A stretch of DNA of 64,000 nucleotides, from contig DUPC01000031.1 in assembly GCA_012838545.1 (NCBI GenBank), forward strand, positions 34,148 through 98,147, given 5' to 3'. The notes under the pieces were generated by a model. It searched no databases, was not told the origin of the DNA, and saw nothing but the letters and a program-made list of their open reading frames with translations. Made by a program: the position numbers and the translations under genes. This DNA is from Acholeplasmataceae bacterium (GTDB lineage Bacteria > Bacillota_I > Bacilli_A > ML615J-28 > CAG-313). This document shows positions 3,257 to 39,813 of the stretch, in pieces; positions within the stretch are counted from its first letter, which is position 1, and every line of letters begins with the position of its first letter.

Positions 3257-3646
3257 TTAGAAACGGATGTAATCGATGTCCCCTTCAAATGTAACGTAGG
3301 ACAAATAAATCAATAACAAGAGATATGTAGTGTTGGTTTGGTTGTCGCGCAAGATCAAATGATCTCTGCCCGATTCCAAAATTTCGCCTTTGAATATCTT
3401 AGAACCCCATTGACTGCCTTCGAAATTCATGTACACGACGGCAGTTTTTCCGCGATTTAACCGCAAAATATTTTCAATGAACGATTGTTCAAAGAATTGA
3501 GCTCCGCCGATAGGGGGCTGTGGGAATTGTTGGGGAAAAAAAGGAACATTCATGCTGGGAAAAGGTTGACCCGTTTGCGCCCCAAAAGGACTGACCGGAA
3601 TTCCGGGGCCGAATTGACCCCAAGGTTGTTGATAGTTAATCGTCAT
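3257..3646 (-). CDS. gerQ: spore coat protein GerQ-like
   Basis: A Gln/Pro-rich N-terminus (QQPWGQFGPG..PFPSM..FPQQFPQPP) is followed by a C-terminal block IENILRLNRGKTAVVYMNFEGSQWGSKIFKGEILESGRDHLIL..YLLLLIYLSYVTFE typical of GerQ. The gene lies immediately downstream of cwlJ, as in the B. subtilis cwlJ-gerQ operon. Confidence 0.55.
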   Translation of the reverse strand: MTINYQQPWGQFGPGIPVSPFGAQTGQPFPSMNVPFFPQQFPQPPIGGAQFFEQSFIENILRLNRGKTAVVYMNFEGSQWGSKIFKGEILESGRDHLILRDNQTNTTYLLLLIYLSYVTFEGDIDYIRF

Positions 3647-3738: not shown

Positions 3739-4161
3739 TTAAGCGAAACACCTTTCGCTTTCGACAGGCGCATAAAAACAGTGGGCTTTATAACGGCCGC
3801 TGTTCCACTGGCCGAACCATTGGGCGGAACAATCCGCGTTCCCTGCATTGTAAAACCACAGCGCGAAGGTTGCGGGGCGAAATTTTTCACCTTGAATGGC
3901 TCTTCTGGCCAACTTGATTTCGTTTTCTCTTGCAGCTTGGTAAAAATAGGAATGAAGCGTGGATTCGAAACCGCCGGGTCGTTGATAGACCATTTGCTGG
4001 ATAGTGCGGATATTGCGAAAATCCAAACAATTGGCCAAGACGCGGTTAACGCCAACGTTAGCCACCATTAACATCCCGAGATTTCCCTCGGCTTCGGCTT
4101 CGGCACGGATTAAGCGCGCCAAAAGCTCGACTTCTTTTTCGTTATGAGCGATAACAGCCAT
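3739..4161 (-). CDS. cwlJ: spore cortex-lytic cell wall hydrolase CwlJ (SleB/CwlJ Hydrolase_2 family)
   Basis: MAVIAHNEKEVELLARLIRAEAEAEG..VANVGVNR resembles the B. subtilis CwlJ N-terminus. Start is taken at the internal Met at 4161, which has the RBS GAAGGAAAA. The ORF track's upstream extension has no RBS. Confidence 0.8.
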   Translation of the reverse strand: MAVIAHNEKEVELLARLIRAEAEAEGNLGMLMVANVGVNRVLANCLDFRNIRTIQQMVYQRPGGFESTLHSYFYQAARENEIKLARRAIQGEKFRPATFALWFYNAGNADCSAQWFGQWNSGRYKAHCFYAPVESERCFA

Positions 4162-4241
4162 TGTTTTCCTTCTTTCTTTTCTTTTTTCTATTAACCATAT
4201 TATGAAAAAAGTCCTTGTATTATGAAATATTTTTACAACAA

Positions 4242-4270
4242 TTGCAATTATTCCCATTTTAACGTATACT
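4242..4270 (+). promoter_or_regulatory. sigma-A type promoter for ppa
   Basis: TTGCAA at 4242-4247, a 17-nt spacer, then TATACT at 4265-4270. Confidence 0.4.
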
Positions 4271-7414: not shown

Positions 7415-7965
7415 TAGTTGTCGGACTAGGTAATCCGGGCAAAGAATATGCCCAAACCCGTCACAATGTCGGTTTTATGTTTGTTGACAGGATTGCCAAA
7501 TATTACAATTGGACCTTTAAATTAGAAAAAAAATTTCAAAGTTTCATCTCAACCGGAACGCTTAATGGTGAAAAAATCATTTTGGTAAAGCCAATCACAT
7601 ATATGAACAATTCCGGATTGGCCGTAAGAAGCATAGTTGATTATCATAAGGCTACGCCGGATGATGTTTTGGTTGTTTATGACGATATGGATTTGCCGCT
7701 TGCGATAATCAGAATCCGCTTAAGCGGATCAAGCGGCGGCCACAAAGGCATGAAATCGGTGATCGAACATATGGGAACGGAAGAAATCAAACGGATTCGT
7801 CTTGGAATCAGCTATGACCACAGCGATGTTATCGATTATGTTTTAACTCCCTTTTCCAAAACCGAATTTTCCCAAATGGAATCTGTTTTGGATAAAGCCC
7901 CTTTAATCATTGCAGACTATTTGGAAAAAGGAATAGATTTTGTAATGAACAATTATAATGGATAG
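7411..7965 (+). CDS. pth: peptidyl-tRNA hydrolase
   Basis: VGLGNPGKEY..HNVGF motif. Gene order pth-mfd-spoVT matches B. subtilis. Confidence 0.95.
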   Translation: MIVVGLGNPGKEYAQTRHNVGFMFVDRIAKYYNWTFKLEKKFQSFISTGTLNGEKIILVKPITYMNNSGLAVRSIVDYHKATPDDVLVVYDDMDLPLAIIRIRLSGSSGGHKGMKSVIEHMGTEEIKRIRLGISYDHSDVIDYVLTPFSKTEFSQMESVLDKAPLIIADYLEKGIDFVMNNYNG

Positions 7966-7971
7966 TGAACT

Positions 7972-10900
7972 ATGTTAAACTATATATATCAACAAAAGAA
8001 ATACAAAAAAGTGATAGACGATATCGTAAAAATCGAGGGTACTGCAAAAAGTACCTCTTTTTGCGTTGGTGTGGATAATGCAACCGATAATGCGTTATTG
8101 TTTTTGCTTGCGGGAATATATAAACAAACCAATAAAACAGTAGTATATGTTTTACCGACCATATATGATGCCACCAAAAACTATGAACGTTTAATGAATA
8201 TTTTGTCCCCTGAGGAAGTGTGTTTTTTCCCGGGTGAAGAACCAATTGCCAGTGTATTGGTTGCCAGCAGCAACACTTACCGTTTGGCGAGGGTGGCTAC
8301 AATCGAAGCGCTTTTGGAAAAAACACCCAGAATTATTGTGACCAACACCGAAGGCGTTACGAGAAACCTAATGTCCAAAGAGCGTTTATTGTCAACGTTA
8401 TTGCATTTCCAAACAAAAGATATTATCGGACGCGACGAGTTAATCGAAAATCTAATCACCAGAGGATATAAAAAAGTAGCTATTACCGAATCACCCGGGA
8501 CTTTCAGTGTTCGGGGGAGCGTCATAGATATATATGGCGTTAATTTGGCTGAACCGATACGGTTAAGTTTTTTTGACGATGGAATTGAATCGATTAAATA
8601 TTTTTCCGTAGAAACCCAAAAAAGCAACGGCGCGACGGATAAGGTAACCATATATCCCTTGTACGAAATGCATTATTCGACAAACGAATTGGAAGGAATT
8701 ATCAAACGTGTTTTGGAAAGGAATTCTTTGAACGAAAAGATTTCCCAAGACATCGAATCCTTGAAATCATTCCAAAACTTGGATCAATTATATATGTATT
8801 TGCCTTACATCGACCAAAATTATGTAAGGTTTTTGGATGCCATCGACCAAAAGATTGTTATTTACAACGACTTCTCACGTATTTTAGATAAAGAACAATT
8901 GAACATTTTGGAAACAAGCGATTACTTTACCAAAGTGGATTTTGTTGGCGATTCCCTATTTTATGCTTCTATCAAAGAAACGGTACCCACTCAAGGCCTT
9001 GTGATGTTTGTTGCCAATCATTCGGTGTACATTGAAGGTATCCAATTGCAAAAAAAGTGGGATTTGAAAACCACCAACAATTACGATTATAACAACAATC
9101 TCAAACATTTACTGGAAGATATTCGCCTTAACAAAGGAAAAACATATATAATCACAAGTTTGAATGAACGCCGTCAGGATGCCATGACAGATTTGCTTTT
9201 CACGAGTGGCATACCTTTTAAAGTTATTGAAAAAATGACGGATTATCAAGAAAGAATCGTCAACCTCACAATCAACGAACAAGCTTACGGTTTTATCGAT
9301 TATGAATTGAATATCGAAATTATTACTCCGAACGAAATGGCCAAGGGCATTATTCCCCCTTCCAAAAAAATGCAGGCGATTTACAAGGAAACCGTCAAGA
9401 TATATTCCAAGGAGGATATCTTAATCGGCGATTATGTGGTTCATCCTGATTACGGAATCGGCAAATACCAAGGAATCAAATCGGTAAAGCTCAAAGACGT
9501 TGTTAACGATTATGTTCTTGTGGAATACGCGGAAGACAACAAACTCTACATTCCGGTCGAAAACATTTCCGTTTTGGAAAAGTACGTGGGAACCAAAGAT
9601 GTGCAACCGAAGCTTAGTAAGTTTGGCAGCAAGGAATGGGAAAAGAAAAAGGCGAAGATTAAGGAAAAAGTTAACGAAATCGCCAAAATGTTGGTTATAA
9701 CCCAAGCCCAGAGAGAGCTTCTCCAAGGTTATCAATATCCTAAGGATTCAGAAGAACAGTGGCAATTTGAACGCGATTTCGGATACATCGAAACCGAAGG
9801 TCAACTAAAAGCGATTGCGGAACTGAAGAAAGACTTGGAAAGTCCGCGTCCGGTGGACAGGTTGCTTTGTGGGGATGTCGGATACGGAAAAACCGAAGTA
9901 GCGATGCGCGGTGCTTTCAAGGTTGTAGAAGCGGGAAAACAAGTAGCCTATCTTGCCCCGACGACCGTGCTTGCAAGACAACATTATTACACCTTTAAAG
10001 AACGGTTTGAAAAATATGGAATCAGAGTGGAATTATTGAGCCGTTTTGTCGATTATCATGTAATTAAAACCACCTTGGAAGGATTAAGAAATGGGTATGT
10101 CGATATCGTGATCGGAACGCACCGCTTATTGTCAAGCGATGTCAAATTCAAAGATTTGGGTTTGTTGATTATCGACGAAGAACACCGTTTTGGGGTCGAA
10201 CACAAAGAACGGATTAAAGCAATGAAAGCCAACGTTGATGTCCTGTCCTTAAGCGCAACCCCAATCCCAAGGACGCTTCAGATGGCTTTAACGGGATTAA
10301 GGGATTTGAGTTTGATTGAAACGCCGCCGTTTAATCGGTTAAGCGTTCAAACATATGTGTTGGAAACCAACGATTCGGTTATCAGAGAAGCTATCAGAAG
10401 AGAATTGGGCAGAGGCGGACAGGTTTTCTATTTGCTTAACAGAATCAGCCAACTCAATTTGATTGAAAGGAAACTTAAGCGTCTTGTCCCGGAAGCCCAT
10501 TTTACTATCATCCACGGAAAAATGTCCAAAGACCAAATCGAAGAAGCAATCAATGACTTCATTGACCGGAGATACGATATCCTAATTTGCACAACTATCA
10601 TCGAAACCGGAATCGATATCCCGAATGCCAACACGATTATCATCGAAAAAGCGGATATCCTGGGACTTGCCCAATTGTATCAAATCAGAGGACGGGTCGG
10701 AAGAAGCGACAGAATCGCTTATGCTTACCTTATGTACGATAAAGGTCGTATTTTGACCGAAAGCGCGCAAAAACGATTGGATACCATCAAGGAATTTACC
10801 GCTTTGGGAAGCGGATACAAGATTGCGATGAGGGACCTTTCCATTCGGGGCGCGGGGGATATTTTGGGAAGCGAGCAATCGGGTTTTATTGATGCGGTGG

Positions 10901-33682: not shown

Positions 33683-34652
33683 AATCGCTTTTGGTCAGTA
33701 TTATCATACCGATAGTTTTATTCATCGTTTAGACCCAAGAACCAAGATAATTTCCTTGATTTTGATGATGGTGTTTATCTTTGTTATTCCCAAAAACCAA
33801 TTTGTTGTTTTAGGCTTTTCGGTTGCGCTTTTATTGGCAGTGGTTTTTTTAACCAAAGTGCCGTTAATCCGTTATTTGAAAAGTTTAAAGCAAATCATGT
33901 TTTTGCTAATTTTTTCCTTTTTCTTTCAAGCTTTGTTCAATAATAGCGGCGATTTGCTTTTGACAATCAATCAAAACATTTCGATTGCCAATATCGCTTT
34001 GGGTGTTGTTTTAATCGTTTTATATTTGTTTTTCAGGAAATACTTACCGTTAAAGTTTCTTTGGTTGATTTTGTTGGTTATTGCCATTATATATATATTC
34101 CAATATCCGATTATCGGCCAAAGCCTCAAATCCTATCAACTAAAAGTATACCGAGACGGTGTGGTTACCGGTTTCTTTATCATCGTAAGAATCATGCTTT
34201 TGATTGTATTTTCGTCGATTTTGACCCTAACCACCAAACCGACGGATTTAAACAATGCCTTGGAATGGTTGATGAGACCGCTTGAATGGGTTAAAATCCC
34301 TACGAGCGTCCTCGCTATGATGATATCCATTTCTCTTCGCTTCATCCCAACGCTCTTTTTGGAAACCGAACGAATCTTGAAAGCGCAAGCCTCGCGGGGA
34401 GTGGATTTTAAAGAGGGAAAAGTTAAAGCCAAAATCACGCAAATAATTTCCCTTTTGATTCCGATGTTTATTATATCCTTTAAAAGGGCTTTCGATTTGG
34501 CCGACGCCATGGAAGCAAGGGGATATATTCCTGGTGCCAAAAGAACGAAACTGGCTTTACTGAAATTTGGTTTAAGCGATTATTTTGTGTTAATCTTTGC
34601 CTTGGGAATTGTTATAGGATTAATTGTTTTAAGGGTGAACCATGCGCTATAA
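33666..34652 (+). CDS. ecfT: ECF transporter transmembrane component EcfT
   Basis: Polytopic membrane protein with the EcfT N-terminal motif (YHTDSFIHRLDPRTK) and the conserved ARG coupling-motif region. Confidence 0.88.
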   Translation: MPVMNKIAFGQYYHTDSFIHRLDPRTKIISLILMMVFIFVIPKNQFVVLGFSVALLLAVVFLTKVPLIRYLKSLKQIMFLLIFSFFFQALFNNSGDLLLTINQNISIANIALGVVLIVLYLFFRKYLPLKFLWLILLVIAIIYIFQYPIIGQSLKSYQLKVYRDGVVTGFFIIVRIMLLIVFSSILTLTTKPTDLNNALEWLMRPLEWVKIPTSVLAMMISISLRFIPTLFLETERILKAQASRGVDFKEGKVKAKITQIISLLIPMFIISFKRAFDLADAMEARGYIPGAKRTKLALLKFGLSDYFVLIFALGIVIGLIVLRVNHAL

Positions 34653-35490: not shown

Positions 35491-35907
35491 ATGATAAAAA
35501 GAATTGGCATGGCCTTTTTAACCGTTTTAATGTTTTTATCGCTTTCTTCGTATTTCCCCGCTGCTTCTGCCAAAAGCTCTTTGGATAATACTTATTATTA
35601 TTTAGAAGAAATATACGATAATTTATTGTTGACGGAACAGGACTTAAAAAGGATGAAAAAGCACTTAAAAAAGAAAGATAAGAGGAGTCGCAATTTCTTG
35701 AAAAGGATTGATGACAAAATCAAGAAACTTTGTTTAAAACATTTTAAGACCGAAAAAGCAAAAGATGTTGCCATCTTGGAAAAATACGGTTTAGCCGGAG
35801 AATCGGTTGGAATCTATTTTAACAAAGATTCCAAGGGTAAAGAAAATAAAAGCGTTTTGATAATCGATTACCGCGAAAAAGAATTGTATACTTGGATTGA
35901 TTTATAA
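35491..35907 (+). CDS. secreted lysine-rich coiled-coil protein (hypothetical)
   Basis: The signal peptide MIKRIGMAFLTVLMFLSLSSYFPAASA is followed by a K/R-rich helical region. The RBS GAGGAGGG precedes ATG 35491. Confidence 0.5.
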   Translation: MIKRIGMAFLTVLMFLSLSSYFPAASAKSSLDNTYYYLEEIYDNLLLTEQDLKRMKKHLKKKDKRSRNFLKRIDDKIKKLCLKHFKTEKAKDVAILEKYGLAGESVGIYFNKDSKGKENKSVLIIDYREKELYTWIDL

Positions 35908-35909
35908 AA

Positions 35910-35945
35910 AACAACCAGATATTTGTTTTATCTGGTTGTTTTTGT
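35910..35945. terminator. bidirectional terminator between convergent genes
   Basis: A 12-bp stem AACAACCAGATA / TATCTGGTTGTT with T/A runs on both sides. Confidence 0.65.
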
Positions 35946-35946
35946 T

Positions 35947-36171
35947 TTATTCGCTTTTTTTAGGTGGTTTTTTTTGATATTTTTCCATCAGCATTTTTTC
36001 GCCCATTGCTACTTGTTGTTTTGTTTTTAACCCGCCCATAAGCGGAAGTTCCCCCAAGGTTTCCGGTTCAATGCTTAAGTCTTTGCCGAACTCGGTATCC
36101 TTTTTTAGCTTTTGTTTGATATCGCGGGTTGTCGGTTTGTTCTTTAGGTTGGAATTTGGGTTGTTGTTCAT
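35947..36171 (-). CDS. small hydrophilic basic protein (74 aa, hypothetical)
   Basis: The RBS AAAGGAGG lies 7 nt before ATG 36171. The protein is low-complexity and K-rich, and a terminator follows it. Confidence 0.45.
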   Translation of the reverse strand: MNNNPNSNLKNKPTTRDIKQKLKKDTEFGKDLSIEPETLGELPLMGGLKTKQQVAMGEKMLMEKYQKKPPKKSE

Positions 36172-36267: not shown

Positions 36268-36296
36268 TTGAAAACGGGGGCGGTTTATGGTATAAT
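36268..36296 (+). promoter_or_regulatory. sigma-A promoter (extended -10) for lipoprotein amidase 1
   Basis: TTGAAA, a 17-nt spacer, then TGgTATAAT. Confidence 0.45.
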
Positions 36297-36318
36297 TTTC
36301 ACAGTGGAGGACAGGAAG

Positions 36319-38004
36319 ATGAAAGCTATAAAAATACGGTATTTTTTATTTATGATAGGTTTGGCATTTTGTTTGACCGGATGTAAGCCTTCAGTCAATT
36401 ATGACGAAATCGGACAAACACTTCTTGGCGATTTACCGGATTTAATCTTCGCCAATGAATTTCAATATGATTTTCCTGAAGAATACCAAGGTCATAAGAT
36501 TACTTGGGAGTTTTCGAAAAGCGATTATATCGATGAAAGCGGGAAGTTTATTGAACCGCCATTTCACGATGCGACGTTAAAACTGAGCGTTTTTGTGGAC
36601 GGCGAAAAAGCCGGAACCAAGAACATCACTTTATCGAGAAATTTAACCAACTATTTTAGCGAAATCGAAAAATATGTCAAAAGCTTTATCAAAGACCGCG
36701 CCCGCGGCGATGTCAGACTGATGACAACCTATTACGATATCGAGGGAATTGAAATCGGCTATACTTCTTCAAAGCCCGAGATTGTCGATAACACCGGTAA
36801 ATATTATAATCACGAGTATGATGAGGAAATCATCTTTGATGTTTCGGTATCATTTCGGGGAAAAACCCACGAATTTCAAGTCAAACATATATCCGTGGGA
36901 ATTCCCGACATGGAAAAAGTCGTCAAAATCGATGAATGGTTGCAAGAAGAACTCGCCAACATGACTTTCGTCGATGGAATGGAACTTCCTCAGACTCATC
37001 CTCTTTACGGGGGCAGAATCCGTTGGATAGCGGAAGACCCGTTTGTGGTTTTGAACAATAAGGATTTCTTCTTGCCGATGGATGAAGGCACATATATGTT
37101 GATGGCGGAAATCAATTATCCCGGGGCTTTTGAATATTTCCGATATTTTGTAGATTTGCAAGCAACCGAAATCAAAGACCCGTTAGAACGCGCCAAATGC
37201 TTTATTGAAGTGGCAACCCCGAAAGAAATCGAAGAATTTATCGTTTTGTATAATGGCGAGGGTGCGAATATTACGCGAAACATAATCGGCGATGATGTCA
37301 ATTGGCAAGTGCACGGAGGGACTAAACCCGAAGTTCCTCAAAACGTTTTGGACAGCAGAATGTATGAAGGGTACACCATGCCGAACGAAGATAATGTTTT
37401 ATGGATTGTCGTCCACGAAACAGGAATGAAATTGACGGGATTGTTTGCGGAGGCGTTTGACAAGGTTCAATGGGACCGGGCAACCGGAGACACAAAACCT
37501 GACAGCGTATCTTGGCATTATACCGTTGACGACCACCAAATCATTCAAAACTATGAAGACGACATTGCCTGTTGGCATGCAGGTGACGGCAGCGCAATCG
37601 GCGGCGGAAATAAAAACGGCATCGGTATCGAAATGTGTATCAATCCGGACGGAAAATACGATGCTTCTTTCCGAAACGACGCAAGACTTGTGGCATCACT
37701 TTTGATCAGACACAACTTGAATATGGCAAATGTCAAAAGACATCGCGACTTTATGTCCAAAGATTGTCCAGAAACAATGATTAAAGAAAGACGCTGGTTT
37801 GAATTCTTGGATTTGGTCGCCAAAGAATATATATCTCAAACTCTTTTGTCGCAATTCGAGATAACTTATGAAATCAACTCAGAAGCTTTGGCAACATGGC
37901 CAATCGCCGGAGTTTATCAAAAAGTTGATGGCTTTACGGAAGATATCACCGTTATTGCCAAAATTGCAAGCGAAGAGTTAAGCCTTGCGATAAAATTGAA
38001 TTAA
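36319..38004 (+). CDS. lipoprotein with unknown N-terminal domains and a C-terminal N-acetylmuramoyl-L-alanine amidase (Amidase_2/PGRP) domain
   Basis: The lipobox LTGC follows the signal peptide. The C-terminus reads VVHETG...WHYTVDD...WHAGDG..IGIEMC..KRHRDF..CPET, giving Zn-amidase His/His/Cys ligands. The RBS is GTGGAGGA. Confidence 0.75.
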   Translation: MKAIKIRYFLFMIGLAFCLTGCKPSVNYDEIGQTLLGDLPDLIFANEFQYDFPEEYQGHKITWEFSKSDYIDESGKFIEPPFHDATLKLSVFVDGEKAGTKNITLSRNLTNYFSEIEKYVKSFIKDRARGDVRLMTTYYDIEGIEIGYTSSKPEIVDNTGKYYNHEYDEEIIFDVSVSFRGKTHEFQVKHISVGIPDMEKVVKIDEWLQEELANMTFVDGMELPQTHPLYGGRIRWIAEDPFVVLNNKDFFLPMDEGTYMLMAEINYPGAFEYFRYFVDLQATEIKDPLERAKCFIEVATPKEIEEFIVLYNGEGANITRNIIGDDVNWQVHGGTKPEVPQNVLDSRMYEGYTMPNEDNVLWIVVHETGMKLTGLFAEAFDKVQWDRATGDTKPDSVSWHYTVDDHQIIQNYEDDIACWHAGDGSAIGGGNKNGIGIEMCINPDGKYDASFRNDARLVASLLIRHNLNMANVKRHRDFMSKDCPETMIKERRWFEFLDLVAKEYISQTLLSQFEITYEINSEALATWPIAGVYQKVDGFTEDITVIAKIASEELSLAIKLN

Positions 38005-38017
38005 TCAAATAAATACC

Positions 38018-38055
38018 GAAAGGAGAAAAACAGTTGTTCTTTTTCTCCTTTTTGT
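38018..38055 (+). terminator. intrinsic terminator between the two amidase paralogs
   Basis: GAAAGGAGAAAAAcagttgttcTTTTTCTCCTTTT. Confidence 0.55.
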
Positions 38056-38130
38056 TTTCATTGGCAATTGGGTAATATTTTATGGTATACTTGTTCTTGT
38101 ATAATATTAAAAAAGCAAAGAGGAAGATAT

Positions 38131-39813
38131 ATGGTAAAGAAAGTTTACGCCAATTTCGGAAAAATAATGGTTTTATTTATTTTGTTGTTTATGCTTGCGG
38201 GATGCAAATCCGAAATAACCGAAGAAAAAATCGAAGAATTGAAAACACAAATCCCCGACATGATTTTTTTAAATGATTTAATAAGTCTACCTTCCGAAAT
38301 AAAGGGAAATAAAATTACTTTCAGTGTTAATAAAGCGGGGTATATCGACGAAAGCGGTAAAGTTGTCAAAGCTGAAACCCATGACGTATCTTTGATATTT
38401 ACCGTATTTGCAAACGAAAAGCCCTTGTTTGAGAAAAAAGTAATTCTATCGCAAAAAATAGACGTCTTATTTAATGAGATTGAGAAATATGTTCGTTCAT
38501 TCATCCGCCATCGGACCGGCAACAATATCTATTTGGTTTCCAAATATTATGATTACGATGATATTTCTTTTGTTTATCAATCCAATCGAGTCGATATTAT
38601 CGATCATGACGGAACGCATCATTCCCATGAATATGACGAACCGGTTGTAATTGACGTTACGGTTAACGCCAGGGGGAGGACGCATCAATTTTCCATTGAG
38701 GTGGAAGCGGTTGGTGTACCGGATTACGAAAAATTAAACCGCGTTCAAACTTGGCTTGACGAATACATGGAAACAGTTGGATTTTTTGATGACATGGAAT
38801 TGCCAAAAACCCACCCTCAGTACGGAGGAATTATCAAATGGATTGCATCGGACCCTTTGGTGGTTATCGGACACAACCGATTTTTTTTGCCTAAGGAAGC
38901 CAAAAGGGTTGCTTTAATGGCGGAAATCACTTTTCCCGGCGGGGATAAGAAAAGCGAATATCTTTTCGATTTGCCGAGTTCTTCAATTGACGATTTGACC
39001 CGCGCTCAAAGATTTTTGGAAATTTGCTTTGAGGAAGATATGAACGAATTTTTCGTTTTATATGAGGGCACATCACCAAATATCACCCAAAATCTTCTTG
39101 AAGGAAATCCCAAAAACAAGCTTTACGGAGAAAAAAGGGAAGAACTGGATTTAGCGAATTTGGACAAATGGTTCTATCCGGGTTATGTAAAACCAAACGA
39201 GGATAATTTATTATTTATTGTAGTTCATGAAACCGGTATCAGAACTCCGGAAAAAAACGCTCAGTTTTATAGCGAATTTCAATATAATAAAGCTTATGTT
39301 GTGGATGAAGTGGATGCTTGGACTTCGTGGCACTATACCGTGGATGACCATTCCATATATCAAAGTTATCAAGATCAAACCGAATGTTGGCATGCAGGAA
39401 ACGGGGATATATATGGAATCGGCGTGGAAATGTGTATCAACTCGGACGGAAATTACAACGCATCTGTAATCAACAATGCCAGATTAATCGCTTCGCTTTT
39501 AATCAAACACAATTTAGGAATGAAAAGTTTGAAAAAGCATAATGATTACTCGAATAAACCGTGCCCGGAAACAATGCTTCAAAACAGACTTTGGTTTAAA
39601 TTCCAGAAATTGATAAGCCATGAGTATGTTTCGCAAGTTCTCCTTTCCCAGTTTGACATAACTTACACATTTGAATTAATCGAGGGGTTAACCGCCTGGC
39701 CGATCAATCAAGTTATATATAATGAAGGCGTAACAGCGGATTCAGTTCAAAATATTTCGGTAAACATTGAGGGAATCGAACTTGCATTTAAGATCGTAGT
39801 TCAAGCGAAGTGA
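38131..39813 (+). CDS. lipoprotein amidase paralog (Amidase_2 C-terminal domain)
   Basis: The lipobox LAGC follows the signal peptide. The protein is collinear with, and clearly homologous to, the 36319..38004 product: it shares the segments KYV.SFI, HEYDE, ELP.THP.YGG.I.WIA.DP, WHYTVDDH and CPETM. Confidence 0.75.
   Translation: MVKKVYANFGKIMVLFILLFMLAGCKSEITEEKIEELKTQIPDMIFLNDLISLPSEIKGNKITFSVNKAGYIDESGKVVKAETHDVSLIFTVFANEKPLFEKKVILSQKIDVLFNEIEKYVRSFIRHRTGNNIYLVSKYYDYDDISFVYQSNRVDIIDHDGTHHSHEYDEPVVIDVTVNARGRTHQFSIEVEAVGVPDYEKLNRVQTWLDEYMETVGFFDDMELPKTHPQYGGIIKWIASDPLVVIGHNRFFLPKEAKRVALMAEITFPGGDKKSEYLFDLPSSSIDDLTRAQRFLEICFEEDMNEFFVLYEGTSPNITQNLLEGNPKNKLYGEKREELDLANLDKWFYPGYVKPNEDNLLFIVVHETGIRTPEKNAQFYSEFQYNKAYVVDEVDAWTSWHYTVDDHSIYQSYQDQTECWHAGNGDIYGIGVEMCINSDGNYNASVINNARLIASLLIKHNLGMKSLKKHNDYSNKPCPETMLQNRLWFKFQKLISHEYVSQVLLSQFDITYTFELIEGLTAWPINQVIYNEGVTADSVQNISVNIEGIELAFKIVVQAK

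Follow-up and report, generated by a model that had tools for sequence, protein, structure and literature searches.

Our analysis concerns two adjacent genes, here called A and B, that lie between truA and tmk in a 64,000-nucleotide (nt) stretch of DNA (hereafter the window) taken from positions 34,148 to 98,147 of contig DUPC01000031.1 in GenBank assembly GCA_012838545.1, a genome labelled Acholeplasmataceae bacterium. Both genes encode N-acetylmuramoyl-L-alanine amidases with a lipoprotein-type signal and a long N-terminal module, for which a first-pass annotation, made from the sequence without database searches, could find no named family. The genes and the parts of their products are listed below in window positions (aa, amino acids).

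36319..38004, plus strand: gene A, a 561-aa lipoprotein N-acetylmuramoyl-L-alanine amidase (open reading frame list, Pfam, BLAST and public gene calls)
36319..36384, plus strand: signal peptide of A, with lipobox L-T-G-C and Cys22 (helix at aa 2-20 in the structural model; family alignment)
36388..36642, plus strand: repeat 1 of A (aa 24-108; model unit 28-106), one helix and 3-4 strands, with a weak aBig_2 match at aa 56-100
36643..36900, plus strand: repeat 2 of A (aa 109-194; model unit 110-192), one helix and three long strands, with the family-wide motif GKxxxHEYDE
36901..37167, plus strand: repeat 3 of A (aa 195-283; model unit 197-280), one helix and three long strands, with the motif LPxTHPxYGGxIxW
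37168..37353, plus strand: linker or N-terminal extension of the amidase of A (aa 284-345), a helix and short strands
37354..37842, plus strand: Amidase_2 domain of A (aa 346-508; Pfam 2.5e-17, alignment with XlyA, Foldseek and invariant columns)
37843..38004, plus strand: C-terminal beta domain of A (aa 509-561) and stop codon, five strands in the model (aa 515-560)
38131..39813, plus strand: gene B, a 560-aa paralogous lipoprotein amidase with the same domain order as A
39211..39570, plus strand: Pfam Amidase_2 match of B (aa 361-480; 2.6e-13, 50.9 bits, cut-off 26)

The starts and lengths of both genes (561 and 560 aa) agree exactly with the gene calls on four public copies of the contig, namely NCBI GCA_028702815.1 JAQVOC010000002.1 (deposited as “MAG: Bacilli bacterium”, MAG standing for metagenome-assembled genome), JGI 3300002898 and two Logan assemblies. 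The two proteins are 43% identical over 553 aa (E 5e-163), a similarity far above chance, so that the open reading frame list, the public gene calls and this identity all confirm the tandem paralogs that the first-pass annotation had described at these positions. An alignment of 60 family members supports the conservation counts given below as well as an AlphaFold2 model of A, which reached a predicted local distance difference test score (pLDDT) of 92.7 and a predicted template-modelling score (pTM) of 0.83. Both products are exported proteins with a lipobox cysteine, for which lipidation is predicted from sequence. The lipobox of B is L-A-G-C with Cys25 and, like the LTGC of A, is preceded by a hydrophobic helix; these are the same two lipoboxes read in the first pass. 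The pattern [LVI][ASTVI][GAS]C fits A and B, a few relatives have atypical residues at -1 or -2 (LNSC, LTNC), and the cysteine itself is invariant in 60 of 60 members.

Catalytic domain and N-terminal repeats

Pfam places Amidase_2 (PF01510) at aa 359-485 of A (63.9 bits, cut-off 26) and finds it in all of the 60 family members. Five residues are invariant in the 60 sequences (H366, E438, H475, K481 and C483, in the numbering of A) and Y401 is nearly so (≥90%). They comprise the zinc ligands H366, H475 and C483 and the catalytic residues E438, K481 and Y401, the complete set for enzymes of the T7 lysozyme/PlyL type, and B carries the same residues. The closest solved sequences to this domain are Bacillus subtilis XlyA (3rdr/3hmb, E 2e-20) and B. 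anthracis PlyL/PlyG; the HxT, IGIExC and HxxxxxKxCP motifs of A stand in register with those of XlyA, and Foldseek aligns the model of A with 3hmb/3rdr at an E value of 8e-13 and a TM score of 0.86-0.87. The first reading had proposed an Amidase_2 domain with complete zinc and catalytic residues in both proteins, while allowing that these residues might turn out to be missing once properly aligned; the Pfam matches, the family alignment and the register with XlyA show all of them to be present. We infer from this that A and B cleave the bond between N-acetylmuramic acid and L-alanine (MurNAc-L-Ala) in peptidoglycan.

The two paralogs differ close to the active site. Compared with A, B has a 6-aa deletion in the adjoining DGxxxGGGNxNG loop (B aa ~420-428, in the region of window positions 39370-39400), and a deletion of 6-8 residues in this loop is shared by the whole B clade (P0006-P0013), three members of which (P0011-P0013) also have WNA in place of WHA. 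These changes may alter the substrate range or the regulation of the B paralog, and they are consistent with sub-functionalisation of the pair. Downstream of the catalytic domain, the C-terminal 53 aa of A had no match among PDB sequences, and the domain shows a weak likeness to the beta part of repeat 1 (hhalign 60%, E 8.6e-5); it is possibly a degenerate, helix-less aBig-like unit.

The module upstream of the amidase consists, in A, of three homologous repeats of ~85 aa each that span aa 24-283. Profile comparison by hhalign relates repeat 1 to repeat 2 with a probability of 97.5% (E 5e-12), repeat 2 to repeat 3 with 95.8% and repeat 1 to repeat 3 with 93.3%, in agreement with the collinear, homologous N-terminal halves and the recurrent I-x-W/Y-x-S motif noted in the first pass. 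By contrast with that annotation, the module does have a name. The Pfam family aBig_2 (PF20578, atrophied bacterial immunoglobulin-like (Ig-like) domain) matches 48 of the 60 family members at E ≤ 0.01, with a best E of 1.2e-21, and when nine homologs were scanned singly all nine passed the aBig_2 cut-off where repeat 1 or repeat 2 aligns, one of them with four copies. The module had escaped naming because aBig_2 stays below threshold in A and is absent for B. Profile searches and structure prediction, which the first pass had recommended, thus recover aBig_2 repeats and an Ig-like fold in the family, with A and B themselves under the Pfam cut-off. The first pass had also held that a match to a well-characterised family would undo the novelty of the module; the family that was found has a name, without a well-characterised function.

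The predicted fold agrees with this assignment. The repeats fit the aBig_2 pattern of few long antiparallel strands and a helix, and among solved structures the nearest fold is that of Domain 3, the hinge of the arabinanase AbnA; according to a review, an aBig domain is present in some arabinanases (PMC11813348). Searched against PDB sequences, the repeat-2 profile gave chance-level matches only, and a search of BFVD with the N-terminal model returned only generic Ig-array tail or decoration proteins at low TM scores. The linker at aa 284-345 has no likeness to the repeats detectable by hhalign, and its pLDDT drops to ~60 when it is modelled without the amidase. We consider the identity of the module mostly solved, as three diverged aBig_2 repeats predicted by transitive homology and fold.

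A phmmer search with aa 23-340 alone retrieved only 71 clusters among 1.84 billion representative proteins. The hits with an architecture unlike that of A and B are multi-repeat aBig_2 proteins: nine copies alone, eight copies with SLH and F5/8-type-C domains, four copies with LRR and Listeria-Bacteroides repeats, and, in a metagenomic protein of 904 aa (P0123), six copies joined to Endonuclease_1, so that the aBig_2 stalk also serves a surface nuclease. A further architecture retrieved in this way combines Big_2, aBig_2 and Amidase_2. Since the N-terminal half alone retrieves such varied proteins with 6-9 repeats, aBig_2 serves as an extracellular spacer or hinge of a generic kind, attached to many surface enzymes in Firmicutes-type organisms, and the module of A and B looks more like a generic stalk than like a specific wall-binding domain. 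The pTM of 0.83 for the whole of A suggests, as far as the model goes, a defined geometry between its domains.

In some family members (L010 at 7764-9386, also P0022, P0045 and P0094) repeat 1 is replaced by Cys/His-rich inserts that follow the lipobox. They carry repeated H-x-H-x-[FY]-x(3-5)-C-x-C-G units, as in HIHKYVNDFCECG, HQHSFNNGECICG and HVHEYINGSCVCG, and may form an extracellular module for metal binding or disulfide formation.

Conservation of the locus and its host lineage

We compared the proteins of the window by tblastn with 80 related loci from GTDB species genomes. An amidase lies between truA and tmk in at least nine related genomes. The gene order ecfT-truA-amidase-tmk-holB-ricT was found in L005, L007, L008 and L011. 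In L010, L012 and L016 this order is kept with extra unrelated genes inserted, and in L006 and L035 the contig end cuts the locus, leaving one flank visible. Housekeeping proteins of the syntenic genomes are 52-67% identical to those of the window, and the faster-evolving HolB 38-46%. The tandem pair together with both small genes that precede it is common only to the closest relative, UBA1427 (L005), whose A and B are 83% and 76% identical to those of the window. A neighbour-joining tree shows the A clade and the B clade as sister groups, and in other species, too, an A and a B copy share one contig (P0003 with P0007, P0004 with P0013); it follows that the duplication is old and that several species have kept both copies. 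When the window is compared with UBA1427, the proportion of non-synonymous differences (pN) amounts to 0.09 in A and 0.14 in B, and that of synonymous differences (pS) to 0.61 and 0.74. Every domain shows little non-synonymous change. A and B are under purifying selection, with the reservation that synonymous sites are near saturation.

This conservation bears directly on the idea that A and B are domesticated prophage endolysins, or the cargo of a mobile element that settled between truA and tmk. Their match to an endolysin family (phrog_3088, 1.8e-33), the prophage nature of XlyA and PlyL, and a guanine-cytosine content of 0.43 over gene A compared with ~0.36-0.40 nearby would agree with such a history. 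Nevertheless, the PHROG matches are confined to the catalytic domain, with none for the lipoprotein signal or the aBig_2 array, and phage records cover only aa 339-520 at 29-35% identity. Phage genes, an integrase or a tRNA were not found nearby, and the position of the amidase is conserved across genomes with housekeeping proteins as divergent as those above. We regard this history as extremely improbable; that the locus came from a prophage or a mobile element is largely refuted and essentially excluded. Scans with Rfam and for tRNAs likewise revealed no regulatory RNA or integration site near A and B.

The family has a second, distant subfamily (27-31% identity). In 33 loci its gene has psuG (Indigoidine_A, 1e-134) downstream, and in 26 loci a membrane protein of 278 aa that carries no annotation. 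Like the copies between truA and tmk, this subfamily is not carried by prophages. Examples among L013-L047 are L032 (8001-9750) and L034 (8644-9672). The copy in L032 is the third paralog of UBA1427, in which Amidase_2 is accompanied by aBig_2 at 49.6 bits; because this relative carries a psuG-linked copy besides A and B, the organism of the window probably has at least three paralogs as well. Beside family members we found no gene that is conserved as a partner, for instance an activator resembling FtsEX or LytM. An apparent cluster of neighbouring “ABC” (ATP-binding cassette) genes proved to be an artefact of similarity to the energy-coupling factor (ECF) ATPases together with one lineage-specific ABC-FtsX fusion.

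Viewed more broadly, at ~16600-43985 of the window a cluster of ribosomal-protein genes, rpoA, rplQ, ecfA-A'-T and truA adjoins a second one, tmk-holB-ricT-methyltransferase-rsmI, with the amidases inserted between them. This junction is kept in at least seven related genomes; in B. subtilis the two clusters are far apart. Elements in the immediate surroundings of A and B, and two spore-related genes further upstream in the window, are the following.

3257..3646 and 3739..4257, both minus strand: gerQ (PF09671, 3.5e-32) and an adjoining cwlJ/sleB-type Hydrolase_2 gene
35491..35907, plus strand: lysine-rich (K-rich) secreted protein of 138 aa, conserved only in the closest relative UBA1427
35947..36171, minus strand: basic protein of 74 aa, conserved only in UBA1427
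36268..36296, plus strand: candidate sigma-A-like promoter of gene A with extended -10, TTGAAA-17 nt-TGgTATAAT (11 of 12 matches, TG present; a consensus match only)
36307..36312, plus strand: ribosome-binding site of gene A, GGAGGA
38018..38060, plus strand: intrinsic-terminator-like hairpin between A and B, a 13-bp A/U-rich stem followed by a U-run, UUUUUGUUUUC
38083..38091, plus strand: candidate extended -10 of gene B, TGgTATACT, with TTGGCA 19 nt upstream (under the threshold of the promoter scan, read from the sequence)
38120..38126, plus strand: ribosome-binding site of gene B, GAGGAAG

The hairpin between A and B has a predicted folding free energy of -14.7 kcal/mol (z-score -2.58) and was not picked up by a simple terminator scan. 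Together with the upstream motifs, it fits a separate transcription of A and B from sigma-A-type promoters. The elements that the first-pass annotation had proposed, an extended -10 for each gene and a terminator between them, are recovered in the form of consensus matches and a folded hairpin. The same annotation had correctly described what flanks the pair, namely truA with the K-rich secreted protein and the small basic protein on one side and tmk on the other, as the open reading frame list and gene calls confirm. The two small genes converge on a 15-bp bidirectional terminator-like hairpin at 35907-35943, and their products have no family match in Pfam, NCBIfam, PHROG or PADLOC. The K-rich protein is probably not a functional partner of the amidases, because it is conserved only in the closest relative. 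For the 74-aa basic protein we rejected an identity as an alpha/beta-type small acid-soluble spore protein (BLASTP against B. subtilis SspA, E = 11). NCBIfam contained no meaningful family for the amidases or the two small neighbours, and PADLOC gave no defence-system match. The sole Rfam family in the window is a T-box leader (RF00230, 128.6 bits) at 607-826 on the plus strand, upstream of serS at 894-2177.

Three of the relatives can be placed taxonomically: UBA1427, UMGS1109 (L007) and UMGS75 (L015) belong to c__Bacilli; o__ML615J-28; f__CAG-313 (Field, Bowerman and Hugenholtz 2024 supplementary table, PMC10868615). The organism of the window is therefore a CAG-313 member close to the genus UBA1427. 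For members of CAG-313 a thin peptidoglycan wall like that of Erysipelotrichales is predicted. Most penicillin-binding proteins and lytX/cwlX hydrolases are predicted to have been lost in the common ancestor of RFN20, RF39 and ML615J-28. ML615J-28 is predicted to be without sortases, and teichoic-acid synthesis to be incomplete. Precursor synthesis in these orders is likewise predicted to be incomplete, and some species may require scavenged muropeptides (all PMC10868615). The names attached to other genomes are a poor guide. L027 and L030 have identical amidase match coordinates and near-equal scores under the labels “Prevotella sp.” and “Anaeroplasma bactoclasticum”, and other relatives are labelled Staphylococcaceae or Muribaculaceae, so that MAG taxon labels are unreliable here.

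For such a lineage, one could imagine that A and B are surface scavenging or bacteriolytic enzymes that act on exogenous peptidoglycan or muropeptides and feed a reduced-genome host deficient in precursors. The predicted gaps in precursor synthesis and need for muropeptides (PMC10868615) would give such enzymes a use, the occurrence of several copies per genome (L005 and L032 in UBA1427) would suit them, their catalytic domain is nearest to those of lytic endolysins, and an aBig_2 stalk carries Endonuclease_1 in P0123. Some matches also come from MAGs labelled Acholeplasmataceae or Anaeroplasma, although these NCBI labels are the unreliable ones just mentioned, with near-identical match coordinates appearing under a Prevotella label, and the three genomes that can be placed are all from CAG-313, with predicted walls. 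Moreover, no transporter or gene for MurNAc or peptide catabolism is conserved beside the amidase, and a membrane tether beneath the cell's own wall restricts reach to foreign sacculi. We therefore judge a scavenging role unlikely.

The spore-related genes of the window raise a different possibility. That the host carries the cwlJ-gerQ pair, as stated in the first-pass annotation, is confirmed by the PF09671 match of gerQ and the cwlJ-type hydrolase next to it; part of the spore germination apparatus has thus been kept, which fits the reduced sporulation gene set of CAG-313, where ~25 sporulation genes are kept in ~90% of genomes with spoIID reduced or absent (PMC10868615). One or both amidases could be sporulation or germination lytic enzymes acting on septal, cortex or mother-cell peptidoglycan, and could offset the reduced SpoIID, engulfment and lysis functions of ML615J-28. 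Two long-kept paralogs would suit one vegetative and one sporulation copy, and sporulation-phase Amidase_2 enzymes do exist in B. subtilis, for example CwlH. Yet the dedicated amidases of sporulation, CwlD, CwlC (Amidase_3) and SpoIIP, are of other families, and Pfam and NCBIfam found no Amidase_3 or SpoIIP domain in A or B, only Amidase_2. Both genes are preceded by a sigma-A-type extended -10, no motif resembling those of sigma-E, -F, -G or -K having been noted, with no formal scan made for these, and most related genomes have a single copy at the truA-tmk position. The earlier proposal of a sporulation or germination role is thus right about the presence of spore genes in the host and otherwise meets with no direct support, set against sigma-A-like promoters and a conserved housekeeping position; we consider it quite improbable.

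Membrane-tethered autolysins as the probable function

On balance, we think it probable that A and B are membrane-tethered housekeeping autolysins carried on a rigid Ig-like stalk. Through the lipobox cysteine they would be anchored in the outer leaflet of the cytoplasmic membrane, and the Ig-like array would act as a stalk or hinge that fixes how far from the membrane, within the thin wall, the catalytic domain stands. There, hydrolysis of MurNAc-L-Ala bonds in the cell's own wall would contribute to its turnover and to the separation of daughter cells. Lipid anchoring would substitute for sortase-dependent display or wall-binding repeats, a sensible means of positioning in a lineage that is predicted to have neither sortases nor teichoic-acid-binding autolysins and to lack most lyt/cwl enzymes. 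The old duplication would have sub-functionalised A and B, each transcribed separately from a sigma-A-type promoter. Of the roles put forward in the first-pass annotation, the cell-separation autolysin thus comes closer to the evidence, while the novel targeting module that was to accompany it looks like a generic stalk.

Several points weigh against this reading, or at least against its simplest form. The autolysin role is derived from sequence, genomic context and a predicted model. The promoters are consensus matches, and a promoter scan found 15 sites compared with 14.1 expected from shuffled sequence, that is, no excess. The aBig_2 assignment is transitive, the score of A for PF20578 being 21 bits against a cut-off of 27 and B having no match. 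The mature proteins are acidic (isoelectric point 4.6-4.9), whereas many wall-binding autolysins are not. In addition, very strong conservation is seen in two motifs, GKxxxHEYDE in repeat 2, with HEYDE at aa 165-169, and LPxTHPxYGGRIRW in repeat 3, with THPxYGGRIRW at aa 225-236, and repeat 2 has the lowest pN and so evolves slowest within A, which argues against a purely passive stalk. These conserved polar motifs exceed the needs of a passive spacer and may form a ligand or metal site, a regulatory element or an interface with the catalytic domain. Likewise, the choice of a rigid stalk over a compact assembly draws on the pTM value only.

A more ambitious version of the autolysin hypothesis would see the whole family as a set of wall hydrolases that replaced the lost autolysins of the LytC/E/F/CwlO type, and perhaps SpoIID-dependent septal thinning, in ML615J-28 and related reduced-genome orders of Bacilli. 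The motifs of repeats 2-3 would then be regulatory or substrate-measuring, and A and B would divide vegetative and sporulation duties, or self-wall and scavenging duties, between them. This extended scheme is speculative and we hold it as a whole to be doubtful.

The enzymology proposed here is ordinary, that of a zinc amidase releasing the stem peptides of peptidoglycan from glycan. Its interest lies in the hosts. ML615J-28, RF39 and RFN20 are uncultured, reduced-genome Bacilli from guts and digesters that stand between walled Firmicutes and wall-less Mollicutes, and the loss of most classical autolysins, penicillin-binding proteins and sortases reported from genome surveys raises the question of how their wall is remodelled and split. 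A family of lipid-anchored amidases at two syntenic positions of the core genome, under purifying selection, is a concrete candidate for the autolysin that is missing from reduced-genome gut Bacilli, and provides a handle for wall biology in these lineages. The aBig_2 domain, in turn, acquires a definite context, that of a stalk carrying surface hydrolases, without any new kind of system being opened.

Comparison with known amidases and aBig_2 proteins

The Amidase_2 fold and the zinc and catalytic residues of A and B are those of XlyA, from the PBSX prophage (3rdr, 3hmb), and of PlyL/PlyG, at ~30% identity. These enzymes are, however, lysins of phages or prophages that are located in the cytoplasm, carry their wall-binding domains at the C-terminus and have no signal peptide, whereas A and B have a lipoprotein signal and three aBig_2 repeats before the amidase and are encoded at a chromosomal housekeeping locus. 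A second parallel is AmiD of Escherichia coli, an outer-membrane lipoprotein of the Amidase_2 family that acts outside the cytoplasmic membrane. AmiD nevertheless has a Gram-negative outer-membrane anchor and a C-terminal PG_binding domain, for which Pfam finds no counterpart in A or B, and we know of no Ig-like stalk in AmiD.

Modular autolysins offer a third comparison. Staphylococcus aureus Atl AmiA (4knl), Streptococcus pneumoniae LytA (4ivv) and Listeria Ami combine, as A and B do, an Amidase_2 domain with non-catalytic repeats, and the Foldseek matches of the A model include such amidases (Atl AmiA 4knl, LytA 4ivv). In these enzymes the repeats (R1-R2/GW, choline-binding) have teichoic acids as ligands and lie C-terminal of the catalytic domain, in contrast with the aBig_2 repeats of A and B, which are N-terminal to it in an acidic, lipid-anchored protein. 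The arabinanase AbnA of Geobacillus stearothermophilus (5ho0), for its part, has a single aBig_2 (Domain 3) between its GH43 unit and a carbohydrate-binding module, compared with three tandem, diverged copies N-terminal to the amidase in A and B.

NCBI already annotates the product as N-acetylmuramoyl-L-alanine amidase, and both PF01510 and PF20578 are recorded in public databases for most relatives. Our search of the full-text literature found no study of the arrangement of a lipoprotein signal, three aBig_2 repeats, Amidase_2 and an aBig-like tail, nor of the function of aBig_2 beyond AbnA. Every component of A and B belongs to a known family, and in combination they make up an uncharacterised variant among the modular amidases and autolysins of the cell wall.

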